From Alphaproteobacteria bacterium (GTDB lineage Bacteria; Pseudomonadota; Alphaproteobacteria; Rs-D84), in assembly GCA_024402765.1 (NCBI GenBank), contig JAKSTC010000001.1:133785-197784 (forward strand): a stretch of 64,000 nt of DNA, given 5' to 3'. Both the position numbers and the translations under genes were made by a program. The number at the start of each line of letters is the position of its first letter. Position 1 is the stretch's first letter. A model generated the notes under the pieces. That model had not been told where the DNA came from and made no database searches. It saw only the letters and a program-made list of their open reading frames with translations. This document shows positions 28,704 through 46,255 of this stretch, in pieces.

Positions 28704-28712
28704 CTGGTGCCC
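28704..28712. repeat. att core copy A (left end of composite island)
   Basis: CTGGTGCCC is identical to the copies at 34672-34680 and 46244-46252. It shares a 10th base (C) with copy B. Confidence 0.65.
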
Positions 28713-28890
28713 CTAGTTCATAATAGTTGGGACAACTGGAATACATTTTATACCGAAATAATCAAAAACGCAAGAATTATCAAGGAAAGCGGTATATCTA
28801 ATGTTTTGCGTGTCGCTAACGGTGGTTTTGTGCCAAATCGCAAGAATCCTAAACCTTAACACCAGGGAAGAATAGGAATGTATATTTATA

Positions 28891-29697
28891 TTAACAAACC
28901 TTTTCGCAATTTGCAGTTTCCTCAGCATTAAACTCTGGAACACGTGCCACTTCGGCAGGTTGTTCAAAGTATGTTTTTATATGACGATAAACATCTTCCA
29001 CAAAGCCCTTGCATTGTTCTGTATTTTCTGTCTGAACCGAAAATGTATTATCATTGTTTTTTCTAATTGATGCTATTGCCACATTGCCACCAATGTAAGC
29101 AGAAGAAACTTCAATTGCGTGGTCGACAGTCCAATAAGCCAGATTAACCGCATTAGCAACATTTGGTATAGAATCTATTTGTATAATCTTTTTTATTAAA
29201 TGAATCGAGGGCATACCATTTGTAAAACCAGAGCCAATAATTGTGTACCACATACCAGAAGATTGAATTGGTGATATCATAAGCCCTGTTATCTTATACA
29301 AATAAAATTCACCACAATGATAAAAACCTATTACTGATACAAATTGAATCTGTTGTAAAAAATCATTGTGTAATTTTTGTATTAATAACCCTTTTGTATG
29401 CTCTGGAACTTTTGTTATCATTAATTCGTTGATAAAGTTATAAAAACCTTTTGTTATATCAGAAATAATAGCATCCGCTGTTCTATCTGGAACATCAAAC
29501 TGAAAATCTTCAAATTTTAAATTCAAAAAATTTAAGAAAAAACGCAAATAATTATCTGCACCAGCACAACAACAAACTATTCTGTTTTTTACTATGTGTG
29601 TTTTCAAATTATCAACACCAACTTGGTCAACAGAACACATTCCGTCAGAAGCAATCACTACACCATCTCTGCATAAAACCCCAATACCAATAGTCAT
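28891..29697 (-). CDS. Proteasome beta/HslV-like Ntn-hydrolase fold protein (candidate toxin or effector)
   Basis: N-terminus M-TIGIGVLCRDGVVIASD, with Thr directly after Met, Asp at mature position 17 and Lys near 31. GSG motif in YTIIGSGFTNG. Lies 6 nt downstream of the Panacea gene. Confidence 0.6.
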   Translation of the reverse strand: MTIGIGVLCRDGVVIASDGMCSVDQVGVDNLKTHIVKNRIVCCCAGADNYLRFFLNFLNLKFEDFQFDVPDRTADAIISDITKGFYNFINELMITKVPEHTKGLLIQKLHNDFLQQIQFVSVIGFYHCGEFYLYKITGLMISPIQSSGMWYTIIGSGFTNGMPSIHLIKKIIQIDSIPNVANAVNLAYWTVDHAIEVSSAYIGGNVAIASIRKNNDNTFSVQTENTEQCKGFVEDVYRHIKTYFEQPAEVARVPEFNAEETANCEKVC

Positions 29698-29703
29698 ATA
29701 AAA

Positions 29704-30150
29704 TTACTCCTGAATCAAAACGCTATTAACTTTCATTTCAGGAAATTCGTCATAAATTGCGAAACACAATTCACGAAAACTCTTTTTTAAAACGAAAGGA
29801 ATTAATGTGCACTGAATATAATCTCTTTCTGCTTTTGTTAAAAAATTGGCTGTGTCAGCACGTTTAACAATTTTATAAAGTGATAAATTGTTGTGTTTTT
29901 CAATTTCCATTTTTTCGTCTTTTACCAATTCATTTATAACAGCTTTCAATTCTGAATCATATGGTCCATATAAATATGGTTGAAAATTGAAATACGTGCC
30001 GTTTTGTCCCAACCTTTTTTCAATCAAAAAAAACAATTTTTGCACCTTTATCGGTGACAAATAAGGATGGTCAGCCGGCAACAAACTAAAAACGTTTAAA
30101 ACAAATTCTTTTCTATCCATAGGTCTATTCTTTACTAAAATATTTACCAA
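29704..30150 (-). CDS. Panacea (DUF4065, SocA/GepA-like) domain protein, candidate antitoxin
   Basis: SPIKVQKLFFLIEKRLG...FQPYLYGPYDSEL matches the KLqKLlY...W.yGPv signature of the family. Confidence 0.65.
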   Translation of the reverse strand: MVNILVKNRPMDRKEFVLNVFSLLPADHPYLSPIKVQKLFFLIEKRLGQNGTYFNFQPYLYGPYDSELKAVINELVKDEKMEIEKHNNLSLYKIVKRADTANFLTKAERDYIQCTLIPFVLKKSFRELCFAIYDEFPEMKVNSVLIQE

Positions 30151-30254
30151 ACATTAATTATTATTGCAACAACAATATAATAAAAACAACGGTTTTGTAT
30201 GTTTGTATTATACCATAAAGCACCATAAAATGAAAGAAAAAACAACTTTCTATA

Positions 30255-30283
30255 TTGCAAAATGGCTTTTTCTGGCATATAAT
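30255..30283 (+). promoter_or_regulatory. Near-consensus sigma70 promoter
   Basis: TTGCAA (30255-30260), 17-nt spacer, TATAAT (30278-30283). Confidence 0.65.
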
Positions 30284-30289
30284 CATAAA

Positions 30290-30532
30290 CAGAGTCGTAA
30301 AACAATTCGGCTTCAGAATCCAAGAGATTGGGTTCGGGGCTATCTCAAGCCCAGTTCATTCGGTGCGAAAGCATCGTTAATCTGATGTGATGGTGTTTTT
30401 GCACCGTTATCATCCCTGACTTATGGTCGGGGGGCTGTTGGTTATAAAATACGGGAAACTGGAAAGCCAATGGAATCAATAATGAACTGATTTGAGAAGT
30501 CCCCGACCGCTCTTTCTTGGGCGGTCTTTTTA
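30290..30532 (+). promoter_or_regulatory. Roughly 240-nt structured leader with mutually exclusive antiterminator and terminator (riboswitch- or attenuator-like)
   Basis: CCCTGAC (30414-20) pairs with GTCGGGG (30426-32). GGTCGGGG (30425-32) pairs with CCCCGACC (30501-08). Terminator GACCGCTC (30505-12) pairs with GGGCGGTC (30519-26), followed by ttttta. The RBS aaaggag and the ATG at 30550 come directly after. Confidence 0.55.
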
Positions 30533-30549
30533 TACAAAGGAGCTCAAAA

Positions 30550-30894
30550 ATGTCAGAAAAAGTCAGTGTAAATCAACAAAGCAATAAAAAAGAAAGAAAT
30601 GTTATTATTTCAGGATATGCTTGGTGGCTAGTAGTCATTGGAGCATTGTTTTCTGGATGTCTTAATGGTTATGATATGCGTTTTGGTATTCAAAATGAAG
30701 ATATAATGTTTTGGTCAACAATTTTGATTGGTTTTATTATGGGCTTAATTCCCGTATGTTTGGCAACATTTCTTGAAAAGAAACATCGTGCATATATTTA
30801 TTGGCTTAGTTTCTTTTCTGTTTGGATGCCACTAGGTATATTTGTTTGGGCGATTGCTGTAATTTGGGCGATTTTTGATAAAAAACGTATATAA
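30550..30894 (+). CDS. Small multi-pass membrane protein
   Basis: Start at MSEKV behind the RBS aaaggag. Three hydrophobic segments (WWLVVIGALF, WSTILIGFIMGLIPVCLA, WMPLGIFVWAIAVIWAIF). Confidence 0.5.
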   Translation: MSEKVSVNQQSNKKERNVIISGYAWWLVVIGALFSGCLNGYDMRFGIQNEDIMFWSTILIGFIMGLIPVCLATFLEKKHRAYIYWLSFFSVWMPLGIFVWAIAVIWAIFDKKRI

Positions 30895-30904
30895 AGGATT
30901 AAAT

Positions 30905-31150
30905 ATGAAAAAAACATTAGTAATAATAACTGCTTGTTTGGTGCTATCTGCTTGTTCTCATACTCATATAACTGAAGATATAATAGGTTATAACGAAACA
31001 GGTAAAGCCTTGGTTAGAGTGTGTAAATCGTCCGGCATTGGTGCCAATGCTAAGGCATTTGGGTCATCGTGCTTAATTGAATTGAGAGATTATGGAAAAA
31101 TTTCTAATACAGCAAATACCATAAATGTGATTTCTAATGACGACAGATGA
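30905..31150 (+). CDS. Small lipoprotein
   Basis: MKKTLVIITACLVLSAC lipobox, RBS aaaggat. Confidence 0.5.
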   Translation: MKKTLVIITACLVLSACSHTHITEDIIGYNETGKALVRVCKSSGIGANAKAFGSSCLIELRDYGKISNTANTINVISNDDR

Positions 31151-31164
31151 AAAAGGATATAAAA

Positions 31165-31821
31165 ATGAAAAAAATAATATTTATAATTATATGCTGTCTA
31201 AGTGTTAATATTTGTCAGGCACAAACATTTAAATCTATGTCAGAACTAGAAGAAGGCTTTATGGCTTTATGTGCTATTGTTGTATTTTTTATAATACTGA
31301 TAATTATAGGTATTCAAAACAATTTACAACAAAAACCGCGTGCAGATAAACCTGTATCGCAACAAGTAAAATTACCTAAAAAAGCAGAGCACGGGGCTAT
31401 GTGGCGATTATTGTTGGGTGGAAGTGAACAGATACCAGAGTTTGATACGATAGTATGTTTTAATAGGGTTCTTGGAAAACCAACTTTGTTCGAATATGAT
31501 GGTGACCTGAATAAGATAAAGAATCTGGCAAACAACCACGGTTTATTAAACTGGCTATGTGATATACGTCAACAATGGTTTGGTCTATTAAAAAACACAA
31601 AAAACATCCCCGTATCAACAATGACATTTTTCTTGTTTGATGCAAAAGGTAACATTTTAGGAATGGCGGCATTGTGGGAAGAAAAAACTTTTGGTAGAGA
31701 CTTCACGCCTTTTAGAATTCCATTAGAGGTTATAAAAGATACTTCATACGATTATCAAAAACTGAAACAAATGTCAGAAAGAAACCGGAAAGCGTTTTTA
31801 GAGGTTGTTGGGGGCAAGTAG
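31165..31821 (+). CDS. Signal-peptide and TM-anchored hypothetical protein
   Basis: MKKIIFIIICCLSVNICQA signal, second TM FMALCAIVVFFIILIIIGI, soluble C-terminal domain. An alternative start exists at 31147. Confidence 0.45.
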   Translation: MKKIIFIIICCLSVNICQAQTFKSMSELEEGFMALCAIVVFFIILIIIGIQNNLQQKPRADKPVSQQVKLPKKAEHGAMWRLLLGGSEQIPEFDTIVCFNRVLGKPTLFEYDGDLNKIKNLANNHGLLNWLCDIRQQWFGLLKNTKNIPVSTMTFFLFDAKGNILGMAALWEEKTFGRDFTPFRIPLEVIKDTSYDYQKLKQMSERNRKAFLEVVGGK

Positions 31822-32116
31822 TAAAAAATACTAGTTTTTGTGGTAATTTTTTTGGACTAGGTATAAAAATGTATGCTTAAAATCACCCAAAAAGCATACT
31901 TTTTTATCACAAATAAGTTAATTAGTGATAATAACGACTTTTATTATTTTGCTCGCAACACCACGGATTTTATGGTGTTGAGCCGTTTTTGATGCGAATA
32001 AAAGTCACAAATAAGCGTTTTTGTCGTAATTTATAAAAACAAATAATTTTGCCCAAAAAGTGTGTATGCGAATACTAACATACATTTTTGGATTAAAAAA
32101 TTTTTTACCAAAACAC

Positions 32117-32161
32117 TTTACATTCTGTTTTTGTATGATAATATTACATATGTGTAATATT
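32117..32161 (+). promoter_or_regulatory. Promoter with overlapping palindromic operator
   Basis: TTTACA (32117-22), 16 nt, TAATAT (32139-44). AATATTACA-tatg-TGTAATATT (32140-32161) overlaps the -10 element and the likely transcription start. Confidence 0.5.
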
Positions 32162-32174
32162 TTATGAGTGTAAA

Positions 32175-32921
32175 ATGACAGACAAGAAAACAAAACACAT
32201 ATTCGATTCTCGTGAATCTTTGCAAGGATGGTCTTTTGATACAGGTTTCAACAAACTAACCTTTAAAAACGCGAAATACGAAATGACTTTTGATGGGCAA
32301 GAATTACAAGAACTTTTGCAAGAAATGTCCACATTAAAAAAAATTATATCCAACGAACCCCAACAAGAATATCCTGGGCAATATCTGGTATCAAATAAAT
32401 CCAAACTAGCACACGTGATACTTACCCAAGAATCAATGGATGTGTTTATGTCTGCATCGGATAATTTGTCAGATAAAAAATACTTACAAGAATTACACGA
32501 CAAAAAGTTTCACAAACAGGATATTCCTATCAGCAGTCGTAATCTGAACGATTGGATACATACACAAAAGTTGCTACCAGACGACCGCACAAACACTGAA
32601 CAATGGCACACCTTTTCCAAAATAGACATCGCATATATTTATGTTCTAAAAGCCTGTCGCGAGTTTGGAATATCACTTCGTTTCTTACATAATGCCAAAG
32701 AATCTTTGCTTACCCGGATACCACAAAGCAAATTCTGTCTGCTTGAAATCGCATACACTTGTTTTGATAAAAGTAAAGAATCTAGGGACATCTTTCTTTA
32801 TATGGATTCCACTGGACATTGCAATATTGCACGTATAGACGATATTGTCCTGATGGCAAAAGAAAAAATGATTAACAAAAATTTCATACTTAACCTTAGT
32901 GAGGTCTGGCGTGAAATATAA
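32175..32921 (+). CDS. MerR-like HTH domain protein (regulator or excisionase-like)
   Basis: Central segment ISSRNLNDWIHTQKLLPDDRTNTEQWHTFSKIDIAYIYVLKACREFGISL follows the MerR HTH/wing pattern. Confidence 0.45.
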   Translation: MTDKKTKHIFDSRESLQGWSFDTGFNKLTFKNAKYEMTFDGQELQELLQEMSTLKKIISNEPQQEYPGQYLVSNKSKLAHVILTQESMDVFMSASDNLSDKKYLQELHDKKFHKQDIPISSRNLNDWIHTQKLLPDDRTNTEQWHTFSKIDIAYIYVLKACREFGISLRFLHNAKESLLTRIPQSKFCLLEIAYTCFDKSKESRDIFLYMDSTGHCNIARIDDIVLMAKEKMINKNFILNLSEVWREI

Positions 32922-33023
32922 GAACCAACCACTTTTACAATGCATCGCACAAACCGATATAAAAGTGGTTTCACTTAACCCTGTTTTTGCTTACGCACAA
33001 TCCGAAGCCAAAACGCAACCAAT

Positions 33024-33212
33024 ATGGTGGATGCGATGGCGACGTTGTCTGTGGCAGAATGCAGAAAACATCTGGGCAACACAAGTTTGACAGACAAACA
33101 AATCGAAACTATCAGGGATAACCTGACGGTAATGATAAACACAATATTTAACAAGGTGCTAAACAATGCAAATAACAAAAGCGGTATGTTATATAAGGGT
33201 ATCAAGCGATAA
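33024..33212 (+). CDS. Small conserved ORF immediately 5' of integrase 1 (candidate directionality factor or regulator)
   Basis: LTDKQIETIRDNLTVMINTIFNKVL aligns with IDTQRAQIISSYLTNIFNTIFNCIL of the ORF at 44400-44567. Overlaps the integrase start. Confidence 0.45.
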   Translation: MVDAMATLSVAECRKHLGNTSLTDKQIETIRDNLTVMINTIFNKVLNNANNKSGMLYKGIKR

Positions 33213-34779
33213 GCAAGTCAGTGATGGCAACGGGTTAGAAACCCAACAATGGGCTTGCCAATCCTGGGCAAAACGTAATGAATACACGATTGAACGCTTT
33301 TTTGTAGATGCCGCTAAAACGGGCACAAAGACCGAGGGTCGCGATAAACTTGCCGAAATGATAGATTACCTGGCAAAGACAAAAGAATCCAGATTAGTAT
33401 TGTTTTATGACATAAGTCGTCTGGCACGTAACGCTGGTGATTTTCTTAAACTTCGTAAATCTATGGAAAAGAGCGGACACAGATTAGCAACCTGTAAAGG
33501 CGTTTTGGAAACAAGCCCTGTTGGAAAATTTATGGCAACGATAGAAGCAGCCCAAGCGGAATTATTTGCAGACCAAAATCGAGAACGCACAGTTGCTGGT
33601 ATGCGTGAAGCCGCAAGGAATGGATATTGGATAACACATCAACCGCCGGGATACCAGTTTGTAAAAGTTGGAAGTCGCAAAGAATTGAAACGACAAGAAC
33701 CCTTGGCGAGTATTATACAAACAGCCCAAGAAGATTTTGCAGATGCTAAGTTATTTTCACAAACTGACGTTGCAAATTTTTTGACCCAAAAGATGCGTTG
33801 CGCTGGATTAGAAACCCCAAAGAACATCTTTGATTTCGTAAAGCGCATTTTGACAGACCGGAAATACACGGCAATTTTTGCATATCCAAAATATGATATA
33901 CCCGTGCAAAAGTGGCATATAGAACCATTGATTAGCACTGAAACTTTTGAGTTAATTCAAGACAGGTTGCACGGTATCAATCGGGTAAAGCATAGAAAAT
34001 ATAACAAGCACGACGAAAGGTTTCCGTTAAAGGGACTGATTATTTGCCCAACGTGTGGTCGTCCATTGACAGCCAGTATGACAAAACGTGGTAAATATCC
34101 ATACTATCAATGTCAAAACAGAAAGTGCCCCGACAAAAAATTAGCAAACGTGTCCCCACAGATATTACACAAAGAATTCGAAACAGAAATCTTGGATAAA
34201 ATCGCCCCATCCGAGAATTTGATTGCGTTAACCCGGGCGATAGCAACAAAAGAATATTCTGAACGCAACAAGTTATCCAGTGCAAATAATGAAGAAAAGA
34301 AAAAGCGTATTAGCGAAATTGAACAAGAACAGTCTAAAATTGCCGATGCTTATATCGGGGCAAGCGATATAATGAAAAAATCGCTTAACCAAAAGATTGA
34401 TGCGCTGGAATCCGAGAAGTTAACATTACAAGACGAAGTTGATAACTACGAACCAGAACTTATGCCATTTGACGAAGCGTTTAATTATGTTGCGGACTTT
34501 TTGAATCGACCAATTGAGGCGTGGCGTAATGGCGATTATGGTATAAAACAAATGGTCCTAAATTTGTGTTTTGCTGATAAAATTTCTTATAACAAAGAGC
34601 AAAAATTTGGGACTCCTAAATTATCCCAGATTTTCAATATGTTCAGCGGTTTTTTACAGGGGAATTCTTGTCTGGTGCCCCAGATGATTTCTCAAGAGGA
34701 CCACATGACTAGATTCTATAACTTGGTTATGGATATGTCAACACAATTGGGTTATATATGCAGAGCTTTTGGTGATTAA
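33166..34779 (+). CDS. Large serine recombinase (integrase 1). The ORF crosses att core B and ends in element-2 sequence.
   Basis: Catalytic N-domain (CYIRVSSDKQ, SRLARN), recombinase domain, zinc ribbon CPTCG...CQNRKC, coiled coil. Colinear with integrase 2 up to NSCLVP. Confidence 0.85.
   Translation: MQITKAVCYIRVSSDKQVSDGNGLETQQWACQSWAKRNEYTIERFFVDAAKTGTKTEGRDKLAEMIDYLAKTKESRLVLFYDISRLARNAGDFLKLRKSMEKSGHRLATCKGVLETSPVGKFMATIEAAQAELFADQNRERTVAGMREAARNGYWITHQPPGYQFVKVGSRKELKRQEPLASIIQTAQEDFADAKLFSQTDVANFLTQKMRCAGLETPKNIFDFVKRILTDRKYTAIFAYPKYDIPVQKWHIEPLISTETFELIQDRLHGINRVKHRKYNKHDERFPLKGLIICPTCGRPLTASMTKRGKYPYYQCQNRKCPDKKLANVSPQILHKEFETEILDKIAPSENLIALTRAIATKEYSERNKLSSANNEEKKKRISEIEQEQSKIADAYIGASDIMKKSLNQKIDALESEKLTLQDEVDNYEPELMPFDEAFNYVADFLNRPIEAWRNGDYGIKQMVLNLCFADKISYNKEQKFGTPKLSQIFNMFSGFLQGNSCLVPQMISQEDHMTRFYNLVMDMSTQLGYICRAFGD
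34672..34680. repeat. att core copy B (junction between elements 1 and 2)
   Basis: CTGGTGCCC encodes LVP inside integrase 1. The left flank (ttttacaggggaattcttgt) is homologous to the left flank of copy C (ttttacacatcaactcttat). Confidence 0.6.
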
Positions 34780-34788
34780 ACCAATTAT

Positions 34789-34826
34789 ATTTGATTTAGA
34801 CATAGAAAATAATGTCCAAATCAAAT
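34789..34826. repeat. Imperfect inverted repeat, candidate res/crossover site for the adjacent resolvase
   Basis: ATTTGATTTAGACAT-agaaaata-ATGTCCAAATCAAAT: 15-bp arms with 1 mismatch, 82 nt upstream of the resolvase ATG. Confidence 0.45.
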
Positions 34827-34908
34827 CATTAATAGCTTGCTTTTTGGACACTTTCACGTCAGTGTACAGCTATATTTAAAGGTTTCAATTATACAAAAGG
34901 ATATTCAT

Positions 34909-35472
34909 ATGGTAAAAATTCTATATGTAAGGGTTTCAACTATTACCCAAAATGAAGATAGACAGGTTCAGGAAGCAGATAATTATGACAAAGTATTTTT
35001 AGATAAGTGTTCAGGGAAAGATGTAAATAGACCAGCCTTGCAAGAAATGCTTTCTTATGTAAGAGATGGCGATGAAGTATATGTGCACGAACTATCAAGA
35101 TTAGGAAGAAATACATTTGATTTACTAAAATTGGTAAGAACCTTACTTGATAAATCTGTTAGTGTGCATTTTATAAAAGAAAATCTGCATTTTAACCCAG
35201 ATAAAGCAGACCCTGTATCCAATATGACTTTTGAAATATTTTCAGCAGTTGCAAGCTTTGAACGACAACTTATAAACCAAAGATGCCAAGAAGGTAGAGT
35301 TCTGGCAAAAGCAGCCGGTAAATATAAGGGCTCTAAAAAGCACCTATCTAATGAACAAATTGCTGAACTCAAAGAATTGGTAGCACAAAACAGAAAAGTA
35401 TGGACACCTACTGCTTTGGCTAAAAGATACAGCATATGCAGAGCAAGCGTTTATAATTATCTAAAAATGTAA
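34909..35472 (+). CDS. Small serine recombinase (resolvase/invertase, Hin/Tn3 type)
   Basis: ILYVRVSTITQNEDRQ catalytic Ser region, SRLGRN, C-terminal HTH LAKRYSICRASVYNYLK. Start at 34909 behind the RBS aaaagga. Confidence 0.85.
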   Translation: MVKILYVRVSTITQNEDRQVQEADNYDKVFLDKCSGKDVNRPALQEMLSYVRDGDEVYVHELSRLGRNTFDLLKLVRTLLDKSVSVHFIKENLHFNPDKADPVSNMTFEIFSAVASFERQLINQRCQEGRVLAKAAGKYKGSKKHLSNEQIAELKELVAQNRKVWTPTALAKRYSICRASVYNYLKM

Positions 35473-35558
35473 ATTCAAAATTTAGTCATGTTTAATCCAG
35501 ACAAATAAGTAATGAAGATAGAATCTTCATTAACAATAATAACCAAAAGGGTTAAACC

Positions 35559-35996
35559 ATGGCAAAGATAAAAAGAAAGAAGCTGGTAAAGCTAATTAAT
35601 AGAACAAAAAACGAACAAATAGACAATATCTGGTTACACATTGGATTTCTGGGTACTAACATAGATGGCTGTCTAGGCAGACTGATTCCTACAGATTCTA
35701 TGTTTACAGAAGATGAAAGGTTTCCAGATACTTTATCTGAGATACAAAACTTTCTTGGTCATGTAATGACTGTTAAAAGATTAATGTTAATCAGACAATG
35801 TAGTGTTAATCCAGAAATAGTTCATATGATACACCAATTAGAAGAAAACCCTCAAAATATTTGGCAAATCTTTAATGAACATAGGCATATCTTTGATATA
35901 AAAAAGAAGTCAAATAATCAATCTAAAGAAGATGATAAAGAAAAATATAATACTATTAAAAAAGTTGTTGAAAAATGGCTTTCAAAAGAAGAATAA
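35559..35996 (+). CDS. Hypothetical protein
   Basis: 145-aa ORF with the RBS aaaaggg. No recognisable motif. Confidence 0.35.
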   Translation: MAKIKRKKLVKLINRTKNEQIDNIWLHIGFLGTNIDGCLGRLIPTDSMFTEDERFPDTLSEIQNFLGHVMTVKRLMLIRQCSVNPEIVHMIHQLEENPQNIWQIFNEHRHIFDIKKKSNNQSKEDDKEKYNTIKKVVEKWLSKEE

Positions 35997-36041
35997 ATAT
36001 AAACCCACGATTATTAGCCGTGGGAGTTATACAATTTGTAA

Positions 36042-39000: not shown

Positions 39001-39752
39001 TTTGATTTATCTGAAATAACATTATGTCTTAATATTTCAGCAAATTTATTGTATATGTTATCACCATCAACTTTATTTAATGGTTTTAAATCCATTTTTG
39101 TTAATGCTTTAGATTGCAAATTGTAAGGTTTAACCCAAGATTCAAAAATGCCGTTGTCTTCAAATTTGCCCAACCACCTATTGTATCTATCTTCTTGATT
39201 TAAATCTGCCCAATCTTTATGATTATAAACAATGGAAGTTTTGTATTCTTGGGTATCTGGATTATATGTATATAAACATATGGCTTCTGTTGTTTTGGGT
39301 TCCTGTTGCAAATAACTAAAAATTTGTGAACCATTTTTAGATTTATTTAAGGTGTTTTTAATCTCTGTTTCAAAATCTTTTCCCCAAACTTTGCATTCAA
39401 TCATCAAAAACGCCATACCATGCAAATCTTTAACAAGAATATCTAGAAAACCCTTGCCGTTATGCCCCAGATTCCATGTTTTTTCTAACTCTATACTTTC
39501 TGGTTTATAACCTTTTTCTAAAAGCCTATTAACACACTCTAAAACAACAAAACTTTCTGTTTGGTGAAAATTACACGTTGTTTTACGACCTGTTTTTATT
39601 TTTGTACCATAATCAATAATAGAATTCTGTGGGCAAATGCAATCATACTTTATGGTAATTTCATATCCATTATAACACTTAGCCCAAACATTAGTTTGTC
39701 CTGATTTTGGTGAAAAACCAATGGATTCAATAAGTTGTATAAAATTACTCAT
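36042..39752 (-). CDS. Single-polypeptide restriction-modification-specificity enzyme (Type IIB/IIG, AloI/CjeI-like)
   Basis: N-terminal PD-(D/E)xK (FLDILVKD...FLMIECK). Gamma-class N6-adenine methyltransferase motifs DYAMGSGHFL and NPPY (LISNPPYAV). Two C-terminal HsdS-like target-recognition domains separated by a coiled-coil spacer. 1236 aa. Confidence 0.75.
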   Translation of the reverse strand: MSNFIQLIESIGFSPKSGQTNVWAKCYNGYEITIKYDCICPQNSIIDYGTKIKTGRKTTCNFHQTESFVVLECVNRLLEKGYKPESIELEKTWNLGHNGKGFLDILVKDLHGMAFLMIECKVWGKDFETEIKNTLNKSKNGSQIFSYLQQEPKTTEAICLYTYNPDTQEYKTSIVYNHKDWADLNQEDRYNRWLGKFEDNGIFESWVKPYNLQSKALTKMDLKPLNKVDGDNIYNKFAEILRHNVISDKSNAFNKIINLFLCKIYDEDTNDDEELKFQTRSGTNEKSDEDLLLDLSDLYMNGMKYYLNKDIEDITLQDFQSIANRANNQELIDAYRQLRLYKDNVFGFREVFDKQSFKDNAKVVREIVELLQDKQLRYSHKQQFLGDFFESLLKDSIKQESGQFFTPVPITQFIINSIPLREIIYDNIQNKKDDILPYTIDYAMGSGHFLTEVMDEYNKIIKTVDTSKIAKTSLKKEVESWQINDFAWAEKYVYGIDLDYRLVKTTKIACFLNGDGLANIIHADGLDSFSKSTVYKDKLKSLKNTKDNEQFDVLISNPPYAVRAFKNTLNDGINSFDLYKDLTDNSSEIECLFIERAKQLVRENGIVAIVLPISVLTNNGIYEKAREILLKNFEFKAIVALGGQAFAATNTKTVILFMRKRASFVFEEIKSATEKFFETYEDVSINGIKNCVSLYINSVWDSLKFEDYVNFLKNNKSTCDMNSDFCKEYKDIPVSEVIEIEKEKLTYFALTYTQKIVLADSKDKDTEKAFYGYEFSNRRGHEGIQIYRDADNNIKTKLFDCLNKYNGCKLNTYILNNFQNVNVAKEVVSIKNNPDHSLHEHIDYLNLSDLISFDTVQFNKSLNLNAKKKIEFDTTYPLEQLGNLLETIQTGSRNSKIGQERQKTGIPSLGGEHIGLDGKVVFSNMRYITEDEFDRMSHGIIKPNDILLCKDGALTGKVALLDSGYPYSKSSVNEHVFILRAKTNKILQEYLFAFLYSDYGQNMMKSVVSGAAQGGLSKTNILKIKIPVLPKKDQENIIEKLHILYDKQSSLLLKKKKLLQEEFDIFKSFTSTDKKRLGDIISLEYGVPLPKQKRNDGEYPVVGANGIIGYHDKYLIKGPSIIVGRKGSVGKVNKISMNNTPIDTTYYVNIKNNSVLIDYVYFVLKRLNLESLNKGLGSGGLNRNDAYALQIDLHNLSDQNKIIDLISPLEQEIDSISKEQESIRDSVTEILNIYFK

Positions 39753-39897
39753 ATAGTATATCTTTTCTTATATTTTAACATATAATTGGCATAAATTCAC
39801 CAAAAATATTAAAAAAAATCCACATAAAAATCAATAATATTTTAAATATTAGTAATTTTTATTAGAGTGGATTATGTAATAAAAAACAATAAATACA

Positions 39898-40620
39898 TTA
39901 TTTTTTTGGTTTTTTGCTCATTTTTTCACCTGTTTCAGCAAAAAAAGCATCGTCACTATTTATTGCTCCAGATGTAATAATGAATATAGCATCTCCTGTA
40001 TTCATTACAAAATCTTTGTATTTTAAATCTTTGCACCTGTTTCTAAAAAGCCGTAGTTGTGTTGAATCTTCTTGTGTTGTATAAAACCCAAGTTTTACAG
40101 TAAATAAGTACCCAACCAAATCTTCAACTAAATTAAGGTCAGAAGAATCACACATTGCAAAGCAATTAATGAAGCTTTCTAATCTTATATACGATAATAA
40201 ATTGACTGTTTCTTCTGGATAATCAAACAATAATTGTCCTATGTCAGGAATTACATATACTATATTTCTGTTTATTCCTAATGTTTCCAGATGTTTTATA
40301 CTATCAAAGAATTCTTCTTCTGATTTGATGAGATTGAAATGTTTTGTGTGTTCTGGAAAAATTGATAACCATTCAATTTCTCCCTTATCTAAAATATACA
40401 CACGTGAAGTATCTTTGTTTGTTGTATCAAAAAATAATTTCATATGATCTATTAACCAGTTTTTTTCTATTTCAAAAGAAATAGATTTTTCACCTGTAAA
40501 TAAAATTGTCTGAAAACTTAAAGGTGTACAGTTTTTCAATACATCATTATCGTCAAATACACATAAAGATTTATGTAATAAATTTTCATTACATCTTGCA
40601 AAATTTGCTGCTATTTTCAT
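39898..40620 (-). CDS. Hypothetical protein downstream of the prim-pol gene
   Basis: 240-aa ORF with the RBS aaggag. No recognisable motif. Confidence 0.35.
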   Translation of the reverse strand: MKIAANFARCNENLLHKSLCVFDDNDVLKNCTPLSFQTILFTGEKSISFEIEKNWLIDHMKLFFDTTNKDTSRVYILDKGEIEWLSIFPEHTKHFNLIKSEEEFFDSIKHLETLGINRNIVYVIPDIGQLLFDYPEETVNLLSYIRLESFINCFAMCDSSDLNLVEDLVGYLFTVKLGFYTTQEDSTQLRLFRNRCKDLKYKDFVMNTGDAIFIITSGAINSDDAFFAETGEKMSKKPKK

Positions 40621-40742
40621 TTTTTACTCCTTATTTATACATATATTTATCAAATGTAAACAAACATAAAAATTTACTTTTGCATATGTAAAAAAAACTA
40701 AATATCTAAACTTTTTGCTAAAAGGTAAATTTCAATAAATAA

Positions 40743-40768
40743 TATATTAAGTAGTACTACTTAATATA
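40743..40768. repeat. 26-bp perfect palindrome between prim-pol and the 240-aa ORF
   Basis: TATATTAAGTAGT|ACTACTTAATATA. Confidence 0.7.
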
Positions 40769-40799
40769 AATTTTTTTTATTTTACCTTTGACAGACATG

Positions 40800-42596
40800 T
40801 TATCTATATGCAGGTCTATCATATATTTCAGGGTGAATTTCTTTCACCACATTTTTTCGTGTGATTTCATAATTTATAGTATCTATTTCTCCTGCTGGTC
40901 TAAAACAATCTATGTTTTCCTTGAAAGACACGATAACTGTTTTTAACACCTGTAAATCTTTTATTCTGGTATATTTAATCACATTGCTAAAATTTAAAAT
41001 ATTTTGAGCAACTATATTAAATATATTTTTCCCTAAAATACAATTATAATTACTGTCCAAGATAACAAATCTTGCACACATTACACCTGGGATATAATAA
41101 TTACCTTGTTGGTCTATAACTAAATATAATCCATATAAATTAGATATGAATGCATTTATTTTTCTAACTATCCCTGTTGTTTCACCACTTATATTGATTA
41201 TTCTATTAATGTAAACAGTTCCCAGGTTGCCACATAGATTATTATATTTTGTTGAATCTTGTATTTTTATATAATTATTAAAGAAGTTATTAACTATATC
41301 ATTAATATTATCTTCTGATAGTTTGTGCTTTCGTGCTTTTTTATTATATTCATTTAAAAAATAATTTATGGCAAATTTTTCTGCTAATAAAACATCTGTT
41401 TTATTAACATCCGGTAAATAATCGTGCCAGTCTTTGACTTCTTCAACAAACTCTCTTTTGTTTATTTTAAGTCCTTTTACAAGATATTCTACTTGGGATG
41501 TTAATTGATCTGTGTTTGATAAAATATCTGCATTACCACCAAGTTTTTTTATTGTATTTACTATTTCAGGGACATTACTCATAAAATCACTAATGTTAGG
41601 GTTCTTTTGTTTTTCTTGGTGAATTATATATGGCACTAATTGAGATAGTTCTTCATATGAATTGCCACGTGATAGACCTTGGGAAAATATTTTTTGTCCA
41701 ATTTCTATGTTAGATTGACCATTCGTTATTGCAGATGCTTCTTTTTGTGCCTTGTTATCCTCAGTGTGTTTTTGGGGATGATTTGACTGTGAAACTGTGT
41801 GCCGCTCTTCAAAAATACTTTCGTCTATTGACAATGAATTTTGCTTTAATGTTAAAATTGCATCAGAAAAAGCTTCATATACATCATATTCTGAATAATA
41901 TGATTTTCTATATTGTAATGTCCCAGGAACCCTAAACCATGCTTTGGGCATATCAATAATTTTCTGACATACAGGTAATTCTATTTTCAATAGCTGAGAT
42001 GCCACATTTTGTAAATATTTTTGAACCATACGTCTTTGTTTAGAAGTCATATCCTTATCACAAAAAATCCACATATGTGTGCCCATTCCATTGTTTTTAT
42101 TTTCATAAACAGAATTGTTTCTGAATGAATTAATAAAAGCAGATTGTATTTTGGTGTATTGGTCTTTTAATGATTCTTCATGACAATCTAAATCTATCCA
42201 CAATACCCTTGAATACTCTTGCTGAATAAACCCATAGTTATCAAAATTATTTTGAATATATCTCAGTTTGTTAAAATAGTTATCTTGGTTTTTAAATTTA
42301 CAAGGACGACCTTTTTGTTTGGCATATTGATTTGAATAAAAACTTAAAACCTTATTGGTTTTTGGGTCTTTATAACCAACAAAATGAATGTTATAACCAA
42401 ATTCTTTCAGAATATATCTTTTTAATTCATATGTTTTTTGATTACGTCTCTTTAATGCTTTTTTTATACCAAAAAATAGTTTTTTTTCTTTGTTTGATAA
42501 TGTTTTTATGTCTTTTGATAAAAGTTCTTTAACTTTTTCATCGTCTAAAGAAATTCCATGATAATAATTATATGTAGAATTCATGATGAGCCTCAT
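40800..42596 (-). CDS. Primase-polymerase (AEP/prim-pol) type replication protein
   Basis: Motif I VLWIDLDCH (DxD), motif II GMGTHMWIF (sxH), motif III WFRVPGT. The long C-terminal domain has no obvious Walker A. Confidence 0.55.
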   Translation of the reverse strand: MRLIMNSTYNYYHGISLDDEKVKELLSKDIKTLSNKEKKLFFGIKKALKRRNQKTYELKRYILKEFGYNIHFVGYKDPKTNKVLSFYSNQYAKQKGRPCKFKNQDNYFNKLRYIQNNFDNYGFIQQEYSRVLWIDLDCHEESLKDQYTKIQSAFINSFRNNSVYENKNNGMGTHMWIFCDKDMTSKQRRMVQKYLQNVASQLLKIELPVCQKIIDMPKAWFRVPGTLQYRKSYYSEYDVYEAFSDAILTLKQNSLSIDESIFEERHTVSQSNHPQKHTEDNKAQKEASAITNGQSNIEIGQKIFSQGLSRGNSYEELSQLVPYIIHQEKQKNPNISDFMSNVPEIVNTIKKLGGNADILSNTDQLTSQVEYLVKGLKINKREFVEEVKDWHDYLPDVNKTDVLLAEKFAINYFLNEYNKKARKHKLSEDNINDIVNNFFNNYIKIQDSTKYNNLCGNLGTVYINRIINISGETTGIVRKINAFISNLYGLYLVIDQQGNYYIPGVMCARFVILDSNYNCILGKNIFNIVAQNILNFSNVIKYTRIKDLQVLKTVIVSFKENIDCFRPAGEIDTINYEITRKNVVKEIHPEIYDRPAYR

Positions 42597-42654
42597 TTTA
42601 TATTATGGTTAATATGCCCCTTGAAAAAATTTTTCCAAGGGACACGTGTGTTAG

Positions 42655-43728
42655 TCACGCCGTTGGCATGGTTTCAATTAATTGTTTTACAAGACCAGGT
42701 AAGAAACATTCCCCTATACAGGTCCTAATTAGATTTTCTGAACACCAATCTGGCACTGGATAATCATCTGGTAATCCTGTTAACCTCAATATTTCTAACA
42801 AAGATAGAACACGAGCGTCGCTGTAAAGACCGTCTGGCATAAGGCGACCAGGATGACCTGTTGATTGAGAGCCCCAACTTCCATTGTTTGTCGTGATTGT
42901 CGGGGCTGGTTTATCCCAAGAAATCCTTGAATACGATTGCCGGAAAGATTTCACTCTAGAACCATCTGCTTTTCGTGGATAAAAGAATTTGTTATCCTGT
43001 GAACAGCCCCCTGAAGGTGTGTGTCTCATAGTAATAACATGTCTTTCTGGTAAAGATGGGGCTTTATGATATTTTATTCCACTATCTTCACCTGCTTCTA
43101 TACTGGGTAAATCACCAATGACATCAATTACTCTGATTTGGCGATCACGCTTTTGTGGTGCTGGCCAAAAGCCATGTTTTGATGCTAGTACAATGGCTCT
43201 TTTTCTGTGTTGTGGAATTCCAAAATCTGCTGCATCTAGTACAACTATATTAACATTATATCCTAAACCTGTTAATGTCTCGTCAATAAGTTTTCTTATC
43301 TGGATTTTTGCATCGCCAACTTGGATATGTGCTGTCAAAAATTGAGGCACATTTTCTATGATAACATATTCAGGATCAGTCCTACGTATGATATCTAAAG
43401 TTGGTAGAATCAAAAATTGTCTCTGATCATTTTGCTTGTTTCCAGTAGTATTAACAGGGGCAAAACTTTGGCACGGGGGTGTTCCTAGAATCATTTTGCA
43501 TCCGAGTTCTTCATATTGTTGCACAATTTGGTTTTGAACATTTGGATCCGTGACGTCGCCACAAATCATTTTTACATCTGGATATATTGCTTCATACAAT
43601 TTTGCCCTTGATGAGTTTATTTCATTAGCCAATGCTACTTGAACATTTGTGTTTGCCAAATAGTATTCACTTATACCAGCACCCGAACAAATCGAGCAGA
43701 CATTAATGCCTTTCAAAGAATTCGACAT
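42655..43728 (-). CDS. DNA (cytosine-5)-methyltransferase
   Basis: Motif I CSICSGAGIS, IV GTPPCQSF, VI ENVPQF, VIII QHRKRAIVLA. Confidence 0.88.
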   Translation of the reverse strand: MSNSLKGINVCSICSGAGISEYYLANTNVQVALANEINSSRAKLYEAIYPDVKMICGDVTDPNVQNQIVQQYEELGCKMILGTPPCQSFAPVNTTGNKQNDQRQFLILPTLDIIRRTDPEYVIIENVPQFLTAHIQVGDAKIQIRKLIDETLTGLGYNVNIVVLDAADFGIPQHRKRAIVLASKHGFWPAPQKRDRQIRVIDVIGDLPSIEAGEDSGIKYHKAPSLPERHVITMRHTPSGGCSQDNKFFYPRKADGSRVKSFRQSYSRISWDKPAPTITTNNGSWGSQSTGHPGRLMPDGLYSDARVLSLLEILRLTGLPDDYPVPDWCSENLIRTCIGECFLPGLVKQLIETMPTA

Positions 43729-43894
43729 TTTATAGTCCCTTTTTTTACAAAGATCCCTAAAAAAGAACCTTTTGGGTTAAATTTTCCAAAAAACTGGGGC
43801 ACTAGCACATTTTGATATATGTGCTTTAAACCCCTGTTTTTTGGGACTTTTGATAAAAAAAGAAGAAAAATTTTTTTAAAATTTTAAAAAAAAC

Positions 43895-43922
43895 TTTACA
43901 AATGTCATTTCTGCACTATAAT
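43895..43922 (+). promoter_or_regulatory. Near-consensus sigma70 promoter of the sRNA candidate
   Basis: TTTACA (43895-43900), 16 nt, TATAAT (43917-43922). Confidence 0.55.
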
Positions 43923-43928
43923 CTCACT

Positions 43929-44030
43929 TACGGACGTGAATAATAAGTACAGAAAAATCTTTGCGTTTTTCTTCTTTTATTCTCAAAAAAAGGAGGACGG
44001 ATTTCGATCCGTCTCTCCCTCTTTTGTTTG
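43929..44030 (+). ncRNA. Candidate roughly 100-nt small RNA (promoter to terminator, no ORF)
   Basis: Runs from the promoter above to the GC-rich hairpin GGAGGACGGAT-ttcg-ATCCGTCTCTCC (43992-44018) plus a U-rich tail. There is no start codon with an ORF in between. Confidence 0.45.
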
Positions 44031-44140
44031 AAAAATAGTATAACACGAAAATAATAAATTTCAAATGTTTTTTCTAAAAAATCAAAACAAATTTTTTTCT
44101 TGTCTTTTTCAAAAACACGACGTTTTCTGGCTTATTTATA

Positions 44141-44183
44141 AATTATTATGTAATATTAATTATATTAATATTACATAATAATT
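44141..44183. repeat. 43-bp perfect palindrome (20-bp arms, 3-nt spacer), candidate ori or operator
   Basis: AATTATTATGTAATATTAAT-tat-ATTAATATTACATAATAATT. Contains the TGTAATATT/AATATTACA half-sites also found at 32140-32161. Confidence 0.8.
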
Positions 44184-44399
44184 ATAAAATAATTTGTTAA
44201 AAAAATTAGAAAAATTCAAATCTTTGTTGGTTGTGCATCTGTCTTATGTTTGCTGTTTTTTTGTTTGTTATGCCCTATAAACCGATTCGTTTTTGATAAA
44301 TTTTTTCACCTTAAAAAAGATTTTATGTAAGATAATTTTATTATTGAAATTTCATAATTGATGACGGTATTAATTTTATATTAATGAAAGGGTTATATT

Positions 44400-44567
44400 A
44401 TGGAAAAAATTAATTTTACCAGAAACAAAGAAGCACCTGCAAATTTATCAAATGATAATGACATTGTTAAAAGTTTAGAAAATTTACAAATAGACACTCA
44501 ACGTGCACAAATTATAAGTAGTTATTTAACTAATATTTTTAATACTATTTTTAATTGTATTTTATAG
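44400..44567 (+). CDS. Small conserved ORF (55 aa) immediately 5' of integrase 2, not in the ORF track
   Basis: MEKINFTRNKEAPANLSNDNDIVKSLENLQIDTQRAQIISSYLTNIFNTIFNCIL. The C-terminal 25 aa align with the ORF at 33024-33212 (9 identities, including NTIFN). Confidence 0.45.
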   Translation: MEKINFTRNKEAPANLSNDNDIVKSLENLQIDTQRAQIISSYLTNIFNTIFNCIL

Positions 44568-44584
44568 TGGTGGGGGGGATTATT

Positions 44585-46255
44585 ATGAAGTGTGTTATTT
44601 ATTGTAGGGTTTCAACAGAAAAACAAATAAAAAATGGTTCTGGTATAGAAAGCCAAAAGATAGCTTGTATAAAACATGCTGCATTTTATGGCTATGAAGT
44701 TATACATATCTATGAAGATAAGGCAAAATCCGGTAAAAATACGGATAGAGATGCTTTACAACAGATGTTACAGTTTTTGAAACATTCTCAAGAACCTGTT
44801 GTAGTGCTTGTATATGATTTATCGAGGCTTTCTAGGGAGCTGTCTGATTTTTCAAGTATTAAAAAAGAAATTTTTAACCACAAACACAGTTTAGCCACAG
44901 CTAATAATGGCACCTTTAATGATACACCTGAAAGCAATATGATGGCAAATATGCAATTATCGTTTGCCCAATATGAAAGAGAATATGGGGCAGAAAGAAG
45001 TAAAAAAAATATGAAATTATTTGCTGAACAGGGTTATTGGATGTTTCAAATGCCACCTGGTTATAAAAGAGGCAAAAATGCTAGAAAAAACCATCTGTTA
45101 AGAGATGAACCCCTTGCTACAATACTAGAAAATGCCTTAAATAAATTTGCATCTGCTGAATTATTGCTTCAAAAAGATGTTCAAGATTATTTGATACAAC
45201 AATTTACTCTTAACCATATGGATATACCTAAAAACATACAGGATTATACCAAAAGGTTGTTAATGCAGGAAAAATATACTGGTTATGGTTCTTATTCCAA
45301 GTGGAACATACCGTATCAAAAATGGTATATAGAACCTTTAATAAGTGTTTATACATATGAACAAATACAAAAGAGATTACACAAAATCACTAGGGTTACA
45401 AATGCTTCTTATAATGAAACAGATCCAAGATTTCCTTTAAGGGGGCAAATAAGGTGTCCTTATTGCGGGGGGCTTATTTCTGGTAGTATGACAAAAAGTG
45501 GAAAATATCCATACTATTATTGCAATAAAACAGGGTGTAAAGGAAAAGCTCAAATCAACGTCACGCCAGATAGATTGCATAAAGATTTTGAAAATTTGTT
45601 AAGTTCTATTTCTACAAAATATCAGTTTGTAAATGTGTTTAGGGATTTAGCTCATAAATTATATTTGAATCATATAGATAAAAGTGCTAGCAACATAAAA
45701 TATCTGCAAGCAAAGTTCAATGATATTACAAAAGAAATAGAAAAAACTTTTGCGACGTTGAATGAAGCAACAAACGATTTGGTAAAGAAATATACAGAAG
45801 AACAACTCAATGGTTTGTTGCAACAACAAGAATCTATAAAAGAGCAGATACGTCGTCCGCAAAAAGAAGTTATGAATTTTGATACTGCATTTGATTATCT
45901 ATTACAGGTTATCAATAATCCTGTATATATGTGGCGTAATGGTGATTATTATATTAGAAAACAGTTATGTGATATAATCTTCATAAAAAAGCCAAAATAT
46001 AGAAAAAGCACCCTTTTTTATGACTATGAATTAGCACCAATATTTTATGAACTAGACAGTATGTATTCTTTAATGGTTGATATTTTAGGTAAAGATATAG
46101 CAAAAGTCATATCCACAGCACCCGAGGACTTATTGGTCCTACATGACACAGATTGCACACAAGATATTTTTACAGATTGTAGGACCACAGCAAAACCACA
46201 GATTTCTGGGAAAAATAGTCCTGTTTTACACATCAACTCTTATCTGGTGCCCTAA
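44585..46255 (+). CDS. Large serine recombinase (integrase 2). The ORF ends at a stop supplied by tRNA-Thr sequence.
   Basis: VIYCRVSTEKQ, SRLSRE, zinc ribbon CPYCGG...CNKTGC, coiled coil. Start set at MKCVIY behind the G-rich RBS. Terminates ...NSYLVP* inside att core C. Confidence 0.85.
   Translation: MKCVIYCRVSTEKQIKNGSGIESQKIACIKHAAFYGYEVIHIYEDKAKSGKNTDRDALQQMLQFLKHSQEPVVVLVYDLSRLSRELSDFSSIKKEIFNHKHSLATANNGTFNDTPESNMMANMQLSFAQYEREYGAERSKKNMKLFAEQGYWMFQMPPGYKRGKNARKNHLLRDEPLATILENALNKFASAELLLQKDVQDYLIQQFTLNHMDIPKNIQDYTKRLLMQEKYTGYGSYSKWNIPYQKWYIEPLISVYTYEQIQKRLHKITRVTNASYNETDPRFPLRGQIRCPYCGGLISGSMTKSGKYPYYYCNKTGCKGKAQINVTPDRLHKDFENLLSSISTKYQFVNVFRDLAHKLYLNHIDKSASNIKYLQAKFNDITKEIEKTFATLNEATNDLVKKYTEEQLNGLLQQQESIKEQIRRPQKEVMNFDTAFDYLLQVINNPVYMWRNGDYYIRKQLCDIIFIKKPKYRKSTLFYDYELAPIFYELDSMYSLMVDILGKDIAKVISTAPEDLLVLHDTDCTQDIFTDCRTTAKPQISGKNSPVLHINSYLVP
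46244..46252. repeat. att core copy C (right end, inside the tRNA-Thr 3' end)
   Basis: CTGGTGCCC is the reverse complement of the acceptor 3' strand GGGCACCA(G). Confidence 0.65.

Follow-up and report, generated by a model that had tools for sequence, protein, structure and literature searches.

The characterised large serine integrases (phiC31, Bxb1, A118/LI and TP901-1) target protein-coding genes or intergenic DNA, and it is chiefly enzymes of the large serine integrase family that serve to insert large DNA in one direction. Targeting of transfer RNA (tRNA) genes is treated in the literature as a trait of tyrosine integrases, with rare exceptions. Cases in which the attachment site of the element (attP) lies inside a gene, and integration changes the gene product, are known from SSV-type archaeal integrases and from the integration-dependent immunity of mycobacteriophages; these involve tyrosine integrases or a repressor gene. 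Here a locus is described in a 64-kb stretch of DNA from an uncultured gut alphaproteobacterium (64,000 nucleotides of contig JAKSTC010000001.1, referred to as the window), in which two separate integrative elements, A and B, very probably lie in tandem at the 3' end of a tRNA-Thr(GGU) gene, each with its own large serine recombinase and each with its attP within the open reading frame (ORF) of that recombinase. With the phiC31-type integrases these recombinases share a resolvase-type catalytic domain, probably a recombinase domain, a zinc ribbon, a predicted coiled coil and a very short identity between attP and the chromosomal attachment site (attB). They differ in that their clade targets the CCA end of tRNA or transfer-messenger RNA (tmRNA) genes, that attP is placed inside the integrase ORF, that a conserved tail is removed by integration, and that the tRNA-distal half of attB is unconserved.

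The serine recombinase of the Ralstonia filamentous phages phiRSM1 and phiRSM3 uses a tRNA-Ser gene's 3' end with a 13-bp core (PMC4471427, citing Askora 2011). Like the recombinases of A and B it acts at a tRNA 3' end via a short core, but it is of the small resolvase/invertase type and its attP lies between genes rather than in the integrase ORF. Eight serine recombinases of Mycobacterium integrative conjugative elements are located at tRNA-Leu, a kind of integration called rare by the authors (PMC3218068). Those elements were likewise assigned to a tRNA gene by genome analysis; compared by description only, they differ in being actinobacterial and conjugative, with no overlap of integrase and attP and no tail swap described. 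In Prochlorococcus, 910 of 937 tycheposons and cryptic elements have tyrosine recombinases and leave behind partial copies of a tRNA, and only the others carry a large serine recombinase; most islands holding these elements adjoin a member of a set of seven tRNA and tmRNA genes, tRNA-Thr(ggt) among them, and in their tandem arrays newcomers displace older elements outward and decayed remnants stay (10.1101/2020.12.28.424599). Again likened by description only, tycheposons resemble A and B as small elements at a tRNA-Thr(ggt) site that form tandem arrays and leave remnants, but they rely mainly on tyrosine recombinases and come from a different kind of host. Tycheposons carry cargo and often encode replication genes; the restriction-modification cargo here agrees with this, and the one primase-like match falls below the Pfam cut-off.

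A recombination site within the element's own serine integrase gene has been described for the streptococcal IME_Spy2096_SNF2 (PMC5357655). There too integration alters the coding sequence of the gene that spans attP, but this is a single element in a protein-coding gene, whereas the arrangement reported here is clade-wide and the tail is under purifying selection. In a review of integrative mobilisable elements, those with a serine integrase are located inside protein-coding genes (PMC5704250), and a large survey of large serine recombinases never mentions tRNA (PMC10083194). No account was found in the literature of a whole clade that prefers tRNA or tmRNA 3' ends and also has a conserved tail encoded across attP, though a prior report is possible.

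The 9-mer CTGGTGCCC that delimits the two elements occurs at 28704, 34672 and 46244 (core copies 1 to 3), always on the + strand, with no further match on either strand of the window. The three direct copies reported in an initial annotation of this DNA were thus borne out; 0.12 matches are expected in 64 kb, and none of 100 shuffles gave three. Copy 3 overlaps the 3' end of tRNA-Thr(GGU), which was called by ARAGORN with agreement from Rfam (63 bits). Without its first base the 9-mer reads TGGTGCCC, which complements GGGCACCA; there the final four bases of the acceptor stem are followed by the discriminator A and CCA. The annotated derivation of this copy from the tRNA acceptor strand therefore holds for eight bases and fails for the leading C, which is the first base downstream of the tRNA gene and lies outside it. 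The T preceding the core is also shared, which extends the repeat to a 10-mer, TCTGGTGCCC. The likeness of the 5' flanks that had been remarked upon is real, but its origin differs: at copies 2 and 3 it stems from homologous codons (N-S-C/Y-L-V-P), and at copy 1 the flank is a terminator T-run. That copy 1 comes straight after the terminator of the last core gene was confirmed by a terminator scan, which placed a hairpin at 28677-28698, at the end of the SemiSWEET gene, followed by a T-run and 5 nt away from the core. The AT-richness of the region was likewise evident (GC 0.25-0.33 within the interval, as against about 0.35-0.40 outside).

The tRNA-Thr gene is intact, and 74 of its 74 bases agree with its counterpart at unoccupied sites in relatives. 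Its displaced fragment measures only 8 nt, far below those left by tyrosine integrases. With its tRNA intact at one end and a displaced piece of that tRNA at the other, the locus has the Islander-type signature, but its integrase is not of the tyrosine family. Such a short repeat (about 8-11 bp) suggests that methods based on displaced tRNA fragments could miss islands of this kind.

Relatives were found by a scan for AspRS (aspartyl-tRNA synthetase, the aspS product), and are metagenome-assembled genomes labelled Alphaproteobacteria, Rickettsiales or Candidatus Enterousia. The initial annotation had proposed a search for the empty site, and this site was indeed found unoccupied at five loci (L002, L003, L005, L007 and L038), with an identical tRNA-Thr 180-345 bp upstream of aspS. 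At L005 about 70 bp stand in place of window positions 28238-46241, and comparison of this empty locus with the occupied L006 shows a common aspS-leader flank up to GGGCACCAG, which is the exact point of divergence. Homologous elements to A were present at the same site in L116, L006 and L114. Locus L116 holds the A-type element only: AsmA is followed by aspS as in the window, then come TGGTGCCC with a c on either side, the A-type element, and TGGTGCCC between a and t, where it enters tRNA-Thr. The L116 recombinase (505 aa) is 87% identical to recombinase A. Similarity between L116 and the window ends at 34680 and restarts at 46245, which indicates that element B (34681-46252) is a discrete and precise extra insertion. 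In the closest relative, L114, whose recombinase is 96% identical, the core leads directly into the tRNA and the match to the window also ends at 34680. Conversely, L103 contains a B-type element alone, with TGGTGCCC at 899 and 10693, adjoining tRNA-Thr(ggt). Lone A-type or B-type elements flanked by the same core were therefore seen at tRNA-Thr in L116, L104, L114 and L103. Together with the empty sites, these loci support the original proposal that two related serine-integrase elements were inserted successively.

These comparisons bear on a simpler account, in which the interval is one composite island with two paralogous recombinases and the middle 9-mer is shared L-V-P coding sequence rather than a junction. 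Copies 2 and 3 do lie at homologous codons of homologous genes, so that their identity alone is no proof of recombination there. However, A-type elements occur alone with their right-end core adjoining tRNA-Thr (L116, L114 and L104), as does the B-type element of L103; exactly 34681-46244 is missing from L116; and copy 1 is followed by an A-type tail, whereas copy 2 is followed by a B-type P' arm and tail. A composite island is thus very improbable, and the single element was rejected as a candidate, given that A and B are separable in relatives and precisely so in L116.

The flanks of the core are informative in the same respect. If the chromosomal left arm of attB is termed the B arm and the arms of attP are termed P and P', then the P' arms of A-type elements start with CTAC, CTAG, CTGC or CTCC and those of B-type elements with CAGA. 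These starts identify copy 1 as a junction of the B arm with P' of A, copy 2 as a junction of P of A with P' of B, and copy 3 as a junction of P of B with the tRNA. Moreover, copy 1 is the point at which the A-type left ends of L004, L006, L009 and L116 stop matching the window. The arm order read from these flanks is that expected for a tandem array of A and B.

Overlooked by the initial annotation was the location of attP inside the recombinase gene. The homologous large serine recombinases that had been placed at the segment ends are there and are 38% identical over 488 aa, but they do not merely point at the cores: their ORFs continue across them. In recombinase A, codons 503-505 (L-V-P) are made up by copy 2, and the ORF goes on for another 32 codons, so that residues 1-505 come from element A and residues 506-537 are read off the left end of element B. 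Copy 3 forms the final three codons of recombinase B, which is truncated at ...NSYLVP by a TAA stop within the tRNA gene. The left end of A, in turn, encodes a tail in frame with the L-V-P codons of copy 1. The A-type tail, with the consensus L[LV]H.SWDNWN.FY.EII..ARIIKESGI..., is found in this frame at the left ends of the elements in the window, L004, L006, L009, L116 and both L104 copies, and a conserved tail is also present where the recombinase is only 45-52% identical, at other threonine tRNAs (L083 and L082). B-type tails occur at L103, in the L014 remnant and at 34681-34779 of the window; the far ends of L103 and L014 begin with CAGA... and encode ...W-x-EFY/C-x-EII. In the window, matches to a profile hidden Markov model (HMM) of the tail were confined to two, at copies 1 and 2.

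The ratio of non-synonymous to synonymous differences (pN/pS) over 28 codons of the tail was 0.10-0.38 in 14 of 15 pairs, the exception being the two L104 copies (0.72), and differences at the three codon positions numbered 53, 65 and 138. The low pN/pS and the third-position bias together argue that the left-end frame is translated. In addition, the 3,932-bp contig L110, whose ends share an exact overlap of 30 bp and which has no tRNA, encodes recombinase and tail as a single ORF (...LVE-LITRNWNQYVQDIIRMAESLETLAA). This protein is a relative of about 32% identity and has the tRNA-end core TGGTGGAGC within its ORF. From its overlapping ends L110 was read as a circular assembly, and it would then represent the contiguous form expected of an excised circle. 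A contiguous tail was present in at least 12 of 138 representatives by regular expression; the narrow tail HMM misses distant contiguous tails, and these were counted by regular expression and by eye. Taken together, attP as reconstructed lies in the recombinase ORF, and the tail would be contiguous with the gene in the excised circle only. With attP inside the ORF, integration parts the tail from the gene, leaving recombinase B truncated and giving recombinase A the tail of B.

The left-end frame could alternatively be a small gene of its own, for instance a directionality factor translated from the GTG in the core, and not an extension of the recombinase. A 50-aa ORF (28707-28859) does begin at this GTG, and the frame is retained in remnants that lack a recombinase (L009 and the left unit of L104). 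However, no ribosome-binding site is evident upstream, where host DNA lies that is different from genome to genome; in every case the frame carries on that of the recombinase's L-V-P codons; and recombinase and tail form one protein in L110 and in at least 12 database representatives. A separate gene is therefore quite unlikely, and the frame is taken here as the tail of the recombinase. One relative with a contiguous tail, P0214, lies on contigs of 23-26 kb (L111-L113) with no tRNA within 10 kb. Its neighbourhood includes a second recombinase fragment and genes for a tyrosine integrase, a relaxase, a TrwB-like protein and a TIR-NACHT protein, and may represent a conjugative element, a plasmid or a tandem array.

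The tRNA end as a target extends well beyond the window. Close homologues (505-509 aa) terminate exactly at L[VM]VP, and the B-type relatives P0023-P0028 end in ...SY[LV]VP, adjoining tRNA-Thr. Distant homologues of 25-52% identity, including a Legionella pneumophila protein, end in what is an antisense translation of tRNA, such as VVGLEPTT or AAGIEPAS. At 15 of 22 metagenomic loci, a tRNA or tmRNA gene lies on the opposite strand at or over the 3' end of the recombinase gene; these are genes for Thr, Val, Leu, three different Arg and Glu tRNAs and one tmRNA. The recombinase ORF reads into the RNA gene in all 14 cases checked, and the 13 tRNA cases share one frame relative to CCA. An exhaustive HMMER search, clustered at 50% identity, returned 568 clusters at E<=1e-30. 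Within the last 45 residues the motif G[FILVM]EP, read as antisense T-arm peptide, was present in 69 of 138 representatives (the full-length proteins among the top 150 of that search), against a background of 0.0007 per 45 residues. Judged from these genomes, the natural attB of the clade is the CCA-proximal end of a tRNA or tmRNA gene. The initial description of the target as unusual for the family is thus apt for large serine integrases in general but not for this clade, in which tRNA and tmRNA 3' ends are the norm. A large clade of this kind would blur the distinction between tyrosine and serine integrases by target, and for engineering these enzymes could offer landing sites that already exist in many bacteria, without prior installation of attB.

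Far-end repeats were also sought at the distant loci L087, L090 and L083 by exact k-mer search, which returned matches of 9-10 nt that are compatible with chance and have no tail; they were not used. At L100 (11545-11943), a distant relative of 24% identity adjoins a tmRNA gene. The candidate repeat at its far end is similar to about 28 nt at the 3' end of the tmRNA and so exceeds in length the repeats of the tRNA-Thr elements. The recombinase ORF of L108 and L109 (Legionella pneumophila, P0033) enters a 28-nt 3' fragment of a tRNA that is followed by no intact tRNA. Downstream is a defence island with AlpA, DndB and restriction enzymes, which suggests a mixed array in which the tRNA fragment was displaced by another island.

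Both recombinases carry the catalytic Resolvase domain and the zinc ribbon, and across 37 homologues residues R11-V12-S13 and Q17 of the former and C294, C297, C316 and C321 of the latter are invariant. The recombinase domain PF07508 scored 16.9 bits, below its cut-off of 21.1, and is present in many homologues; the AlphaFold model of recombinase A is confident over residues 163-270. The mean predicted local distance difference test score (pLDDT) of the model was 68. Helices predicted at 361-398 and 401-426 (pLDDT 80-92) would form a coiled coil spanning 361-426. The best Foldseek matches were full-length serine integrase complexes, 9y66, Bxb1 (9iu2) and phiC31 (9rah), with about 500 columns aligned, and a sequence search of the PDB gave matches limited to catalytic domains. 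Recombinase A is thus predicted, from sequence and model, to have the architecture of a large serine integrase. Of the two family alignments, A1 was too diverse for locus scans and A2 was used.

Each recombinase gene is preceded by a small ORF, which overlaps the start of the recombinase A gene and lies just upstream of the recombinase B gene. Counterparts of the 62-aa ORF precede the recombinases of B, L103, L109 (Legionella) and L110, with weak similarity. In the distant clade members, ORFs of 50-62 aa abut or overlap the recombinase start at L103 8857-9009, L109 5505-5657 and L110 1486-1644. A loose common pattern, ...L.GL.L..EE...I...I..NTIFN, can be recognised, and these ORFs may encode a candidate accessory, directionality or regulatory factor.

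On the mechanism proposed here, strand exchange would take place within the 8 bp TGGTGCCC, whose complementary strand comprises four bases of the acceptor stem, the discriminator and CCA. Next to TGGTGCCC on its left, L104 and L116 have c with the host arm and a with the P arm, and on its right they have c with P' and t with the tRNA. This segregation of the flanking bases with the arms bounds the crossover to the 8 bp. As attP and attB agree in the bases that are exchanged, the tRNA is preserved and the only trace is a direct repeat of very few bases. On the excised circle, the recombinase ORF would pass through the core into a conserved tail of 32-49 codons, which is encoded at the far end of the integrated element. 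After integration, recombinase B would stop at LVP-TAA inside the tRNA and recombinase A would read into the tail of element B. The predicted attP junctions are GGGGAATTCTTGTCTGGTGCCCCTAGTTCATAATAG for A and CATCAACTCTTATCTGGTGCCCCAGATGATTTCTC for B; a circle of A and B together would have the junction CATCAACTCTTATCTGGTGCCCCTAGTTCATAATAG, the restored attB would read GGGCGCTTTTTATTCTGGTGCCCTAAGCAAGAATCGG and the A-only junction GGGGAATTCTTGTCTGGTGCCCTAAGCAAG.

As to the order of events, A is most likely the older resident and B, which is poorer in GC and carries restriction-modification genes, arrived later at the tRNA-proximal junction, pushing A outward. A diverges about as much as host genes and B is compositionally foreign, so that a resident A with later insertion of B on the tRNA side is the simplest history. 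Decayed units in other arrays also sit distal to the tRNA (the L104 left unit, L009, L001 and L014). The final arrangement, with a core at both junctions, would be the same had B come first and A inserted later into the distal junction (attL) of B. This reverse order is unlikely: across the clade no part of attB is conserved but the half formed by the tRNA, which is missing from attL of B, A stands alone at the site in several relatives, B is compositionally recent, and decayed units lie distal to the tRNA in other arrays (L104) as well as in tycheposon arrays (10.1101/2020.12.28.424599).

Several observations weigh against two mobile elements in tandem with a split attP. No attP junction from A or B was found, and the window holds no direct sign of excision. 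A symmetry scan of the reconstructed attB and attP gave no convincing inverted-repeat half-sites and no consistent centre. The tRNA-distal half of attB, the B arm, is not conserved between hosts; this is unexpected, as large serine integrases normally read both half-sites. Insertion of B beside A would need a site whose left half is the P arm of A, that is an attP x attR-like reaction into attR of A, which to our knowledge characterised large serine integrases do not normally perform. A k-mer-seeded search did not find recombinase A contiguous with its tail, and the later exhaustive search gave contiguous forms in distant relatives. The circularity of L110 is known solely from assembly overlap. 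Residues 469-537 of the recombinase A model have a pLDDT below 50, so that the model is uninformative there and permits no structural inference about the tail. Finally, the divergence of A is close to that of host genes, so that A may have been passed on vertically and have lost its mobility.

The last point raises the question of whether A and B are fixed, immobile relics, with recombinases that, truncated or foreign-tailed, are inactive or repurposed. The divergence of A tracks that of host genes across relatives, recombinase-less remnants are common at the tRNA-Thr site (L009, L001, L014 and the L104 left unit), there is no evidence of excision, and recombinase B lacks its tail. However, both recombinase ORFs are intact and retain the invariant catalytic and zinc-ribbon residues, the tail frames are intact at both left ends, the low GC of B (0.25-0.30) compared with about 0.37 for the host argues for recent arrival, and truncation upon integration is the normal state clade-wide. 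Relic status is accordingly possible, if on the whole doubtful, and both copies in the window may still be mobile. One relative shows a further kind of unit at the site: L104 3918-6406 (also L107 144-2632) is a 2.5-kb unit between two cores with its own tail-coding P' arm, a UvrD-like helicase as its only gene and no recombinase; a complete A-type element adjoins it in tandem. The unit either is an element in decay or travels as a passenger by means of its neighbour's recombinase.

Loss or swap of the tail may have a functional consequence. A speculative and rather doubtful extension is that the split of the recombinase gene by attP is a built-in state switch, in which the tailed protein is made from the circle only and the integrated copy is tail-less or tailed by its neighbour. 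If the tail alters coiled-coil behaviour, stability or expression, this could set the direction of integration and excision without a separate directionality factor, and neighbours within a tandem array would become coupled in their behaviour. The placement of attP within the ORF and the purifying selection on the tail provide a testable hypothesis for how an integrase might sense the integrated and free states; the integration-dependent change of the recombinase C-terminus is the feature most worth testing.

Table. Coordinates in the window of elements A and B, their attachment sites, recombinase genes and other content.
Feature	Position	Strand	Evidence or remark
Left chromosomal arm of attB (B arm)	28677..28703	+	SemiSWEET terminator hairpin and T-run; terminator scan, sequence reading
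Core copy 1	28704..28712	+	attL of element A (B arm, core, P' arm of A)
Element A	28713..34680	+	5,968 bp counting one core
P' arm of A	28713..28859	+	Encodes tail of circle-form recombinase A (LVHNSWDNWNTFYTEIIKNARIIKESGISNVLRVANGGFVPNRKNPKP, stop), in frame with core L-V-P; tail HMM E=5e-25
Proteasome-like protein, cargo of A	28891-29697	-	
Antitoxin-like protein, cargo of A	29704-30150	-	148 aa
Small membrane proteins, lipoproteins and a 248-aa protein without assigned function, cargo of A			
62-aa ORF	33024..33212	+	INTIFN motif; overlaps start of recombinase A gene
Recombinase A as now encoded	33166..34779	+	537 aa; Pfam Resolvase (PF00239) 5e-31, Zn_ribbon_recom (PF13408) 5e-10
Core copy 2	34672..34680	+	Hybrid junction (P arm of A, core, P' arm of B)
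Element B	34681..46252	+	11,572 bp counting one core; GC 0.25-0.35 by 1-kb window
P' arm of B	34681..34779	+	Encodes B-type tail (QMISQEDHMTRFYNLVMDMSTQLGYICRAFGD, stop), now appended to recombinase A; tail HMM E=2.6e-11
Small serine recombinase of B, resolvase/invertase type	34906..35472	+	Pfam Resolvase 3.7e-35
Type IIG restriction-methylase fusion, two specificity domains, cargo of B	36042..39752	-	PADLOC REase_MTase_IIG 4e-213; Pfam N6_Mtase, Methylase_S
Protein of B with archaeo-eukaryotic-primase-like domain	40800..42596	-	Pfam AEP-TOTE 24.8 bits, below cut-off 27; weak
C5 cytosine DNA methyltransferase, cargo of B	42655..43728	-	Pfam DNA_methylase 4e-43; PADLOC MTase_II 1e-100
55-aa ORF	44400..44567	+	FNTIFN motif; just upstream of recombinase B gene
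Recombinase B	44585..46255	+	556 aa from MKCVIY...; Resolvase (PF00239) 1.8e-31, Zn_ribbon_recom
Core copy 3	46244..46252	+	attR of element B (P arm of B, core, tRNA)
tRNA-Thr(GGU), intact	46245..46318	-	ARAGORN, Rfam

The remaining gene content of A and B is that of small cargo islands, not of conjugative elements or prophages. Relaxase, coupling-protein and type IV secretion domains were not found among the ORFs scanned, where very short or novel mobilisation genes are still possible, and no ORF scanned had a Pfam match to capsid, terminase or other virion or packaging genes. No relatives of the recombinases were found in a collection of viral contigs, which leaves a phage origin unsupported. 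The initial statement that only serine recombinases are present was upheld, as the scan of 17 ORFs in the interval gave no match to a tyrosine recombinase (Phage_integrase); a third, small serine recombinase is present in B. It is a probable multimer resolvase for the circular form, and the B-type element of L103 also has a small resolvase. The primase-like protein of B would probably be a replication initiator for the excised circle, on a weak domain assignment, and A and B can probably replicate as circles.

Element A also contains a non-coding piece, 30316-30570, which is 85-86% conserved in L009 and L116 and recurs, inverted, in the L001 remnant. Within it, 30425-30516 (+) matches sRNA-Xcc1 below threshold (41 bits against a gathering score of 53, E=2.7e-4).

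Outside the elements, the SemiSWEET gene (28388-28675) is missing from this position in every relative examined, and an exact look-up of its protein gave no record. Other sequence also occupies the place of the ABC-transporter block between tRNA-Thr and tRNA-Met (46319-51550) in relatives, so that both flanks of tRNA-Thr are variable. A leader upstream of aspS is conserved over about 100-120 nt (window 28230-28330, minus strand; GTGATGATATGACTGACAACCATGGA ... GGGTGGCACCGCGC ... GCGCCCCTG). It matched no Rfam family at E<=0.01 and is kept in all relatives (L002, L003, L005, L006, L007 and L038); the listed GTG start at 28229 over-extends aspS into it.

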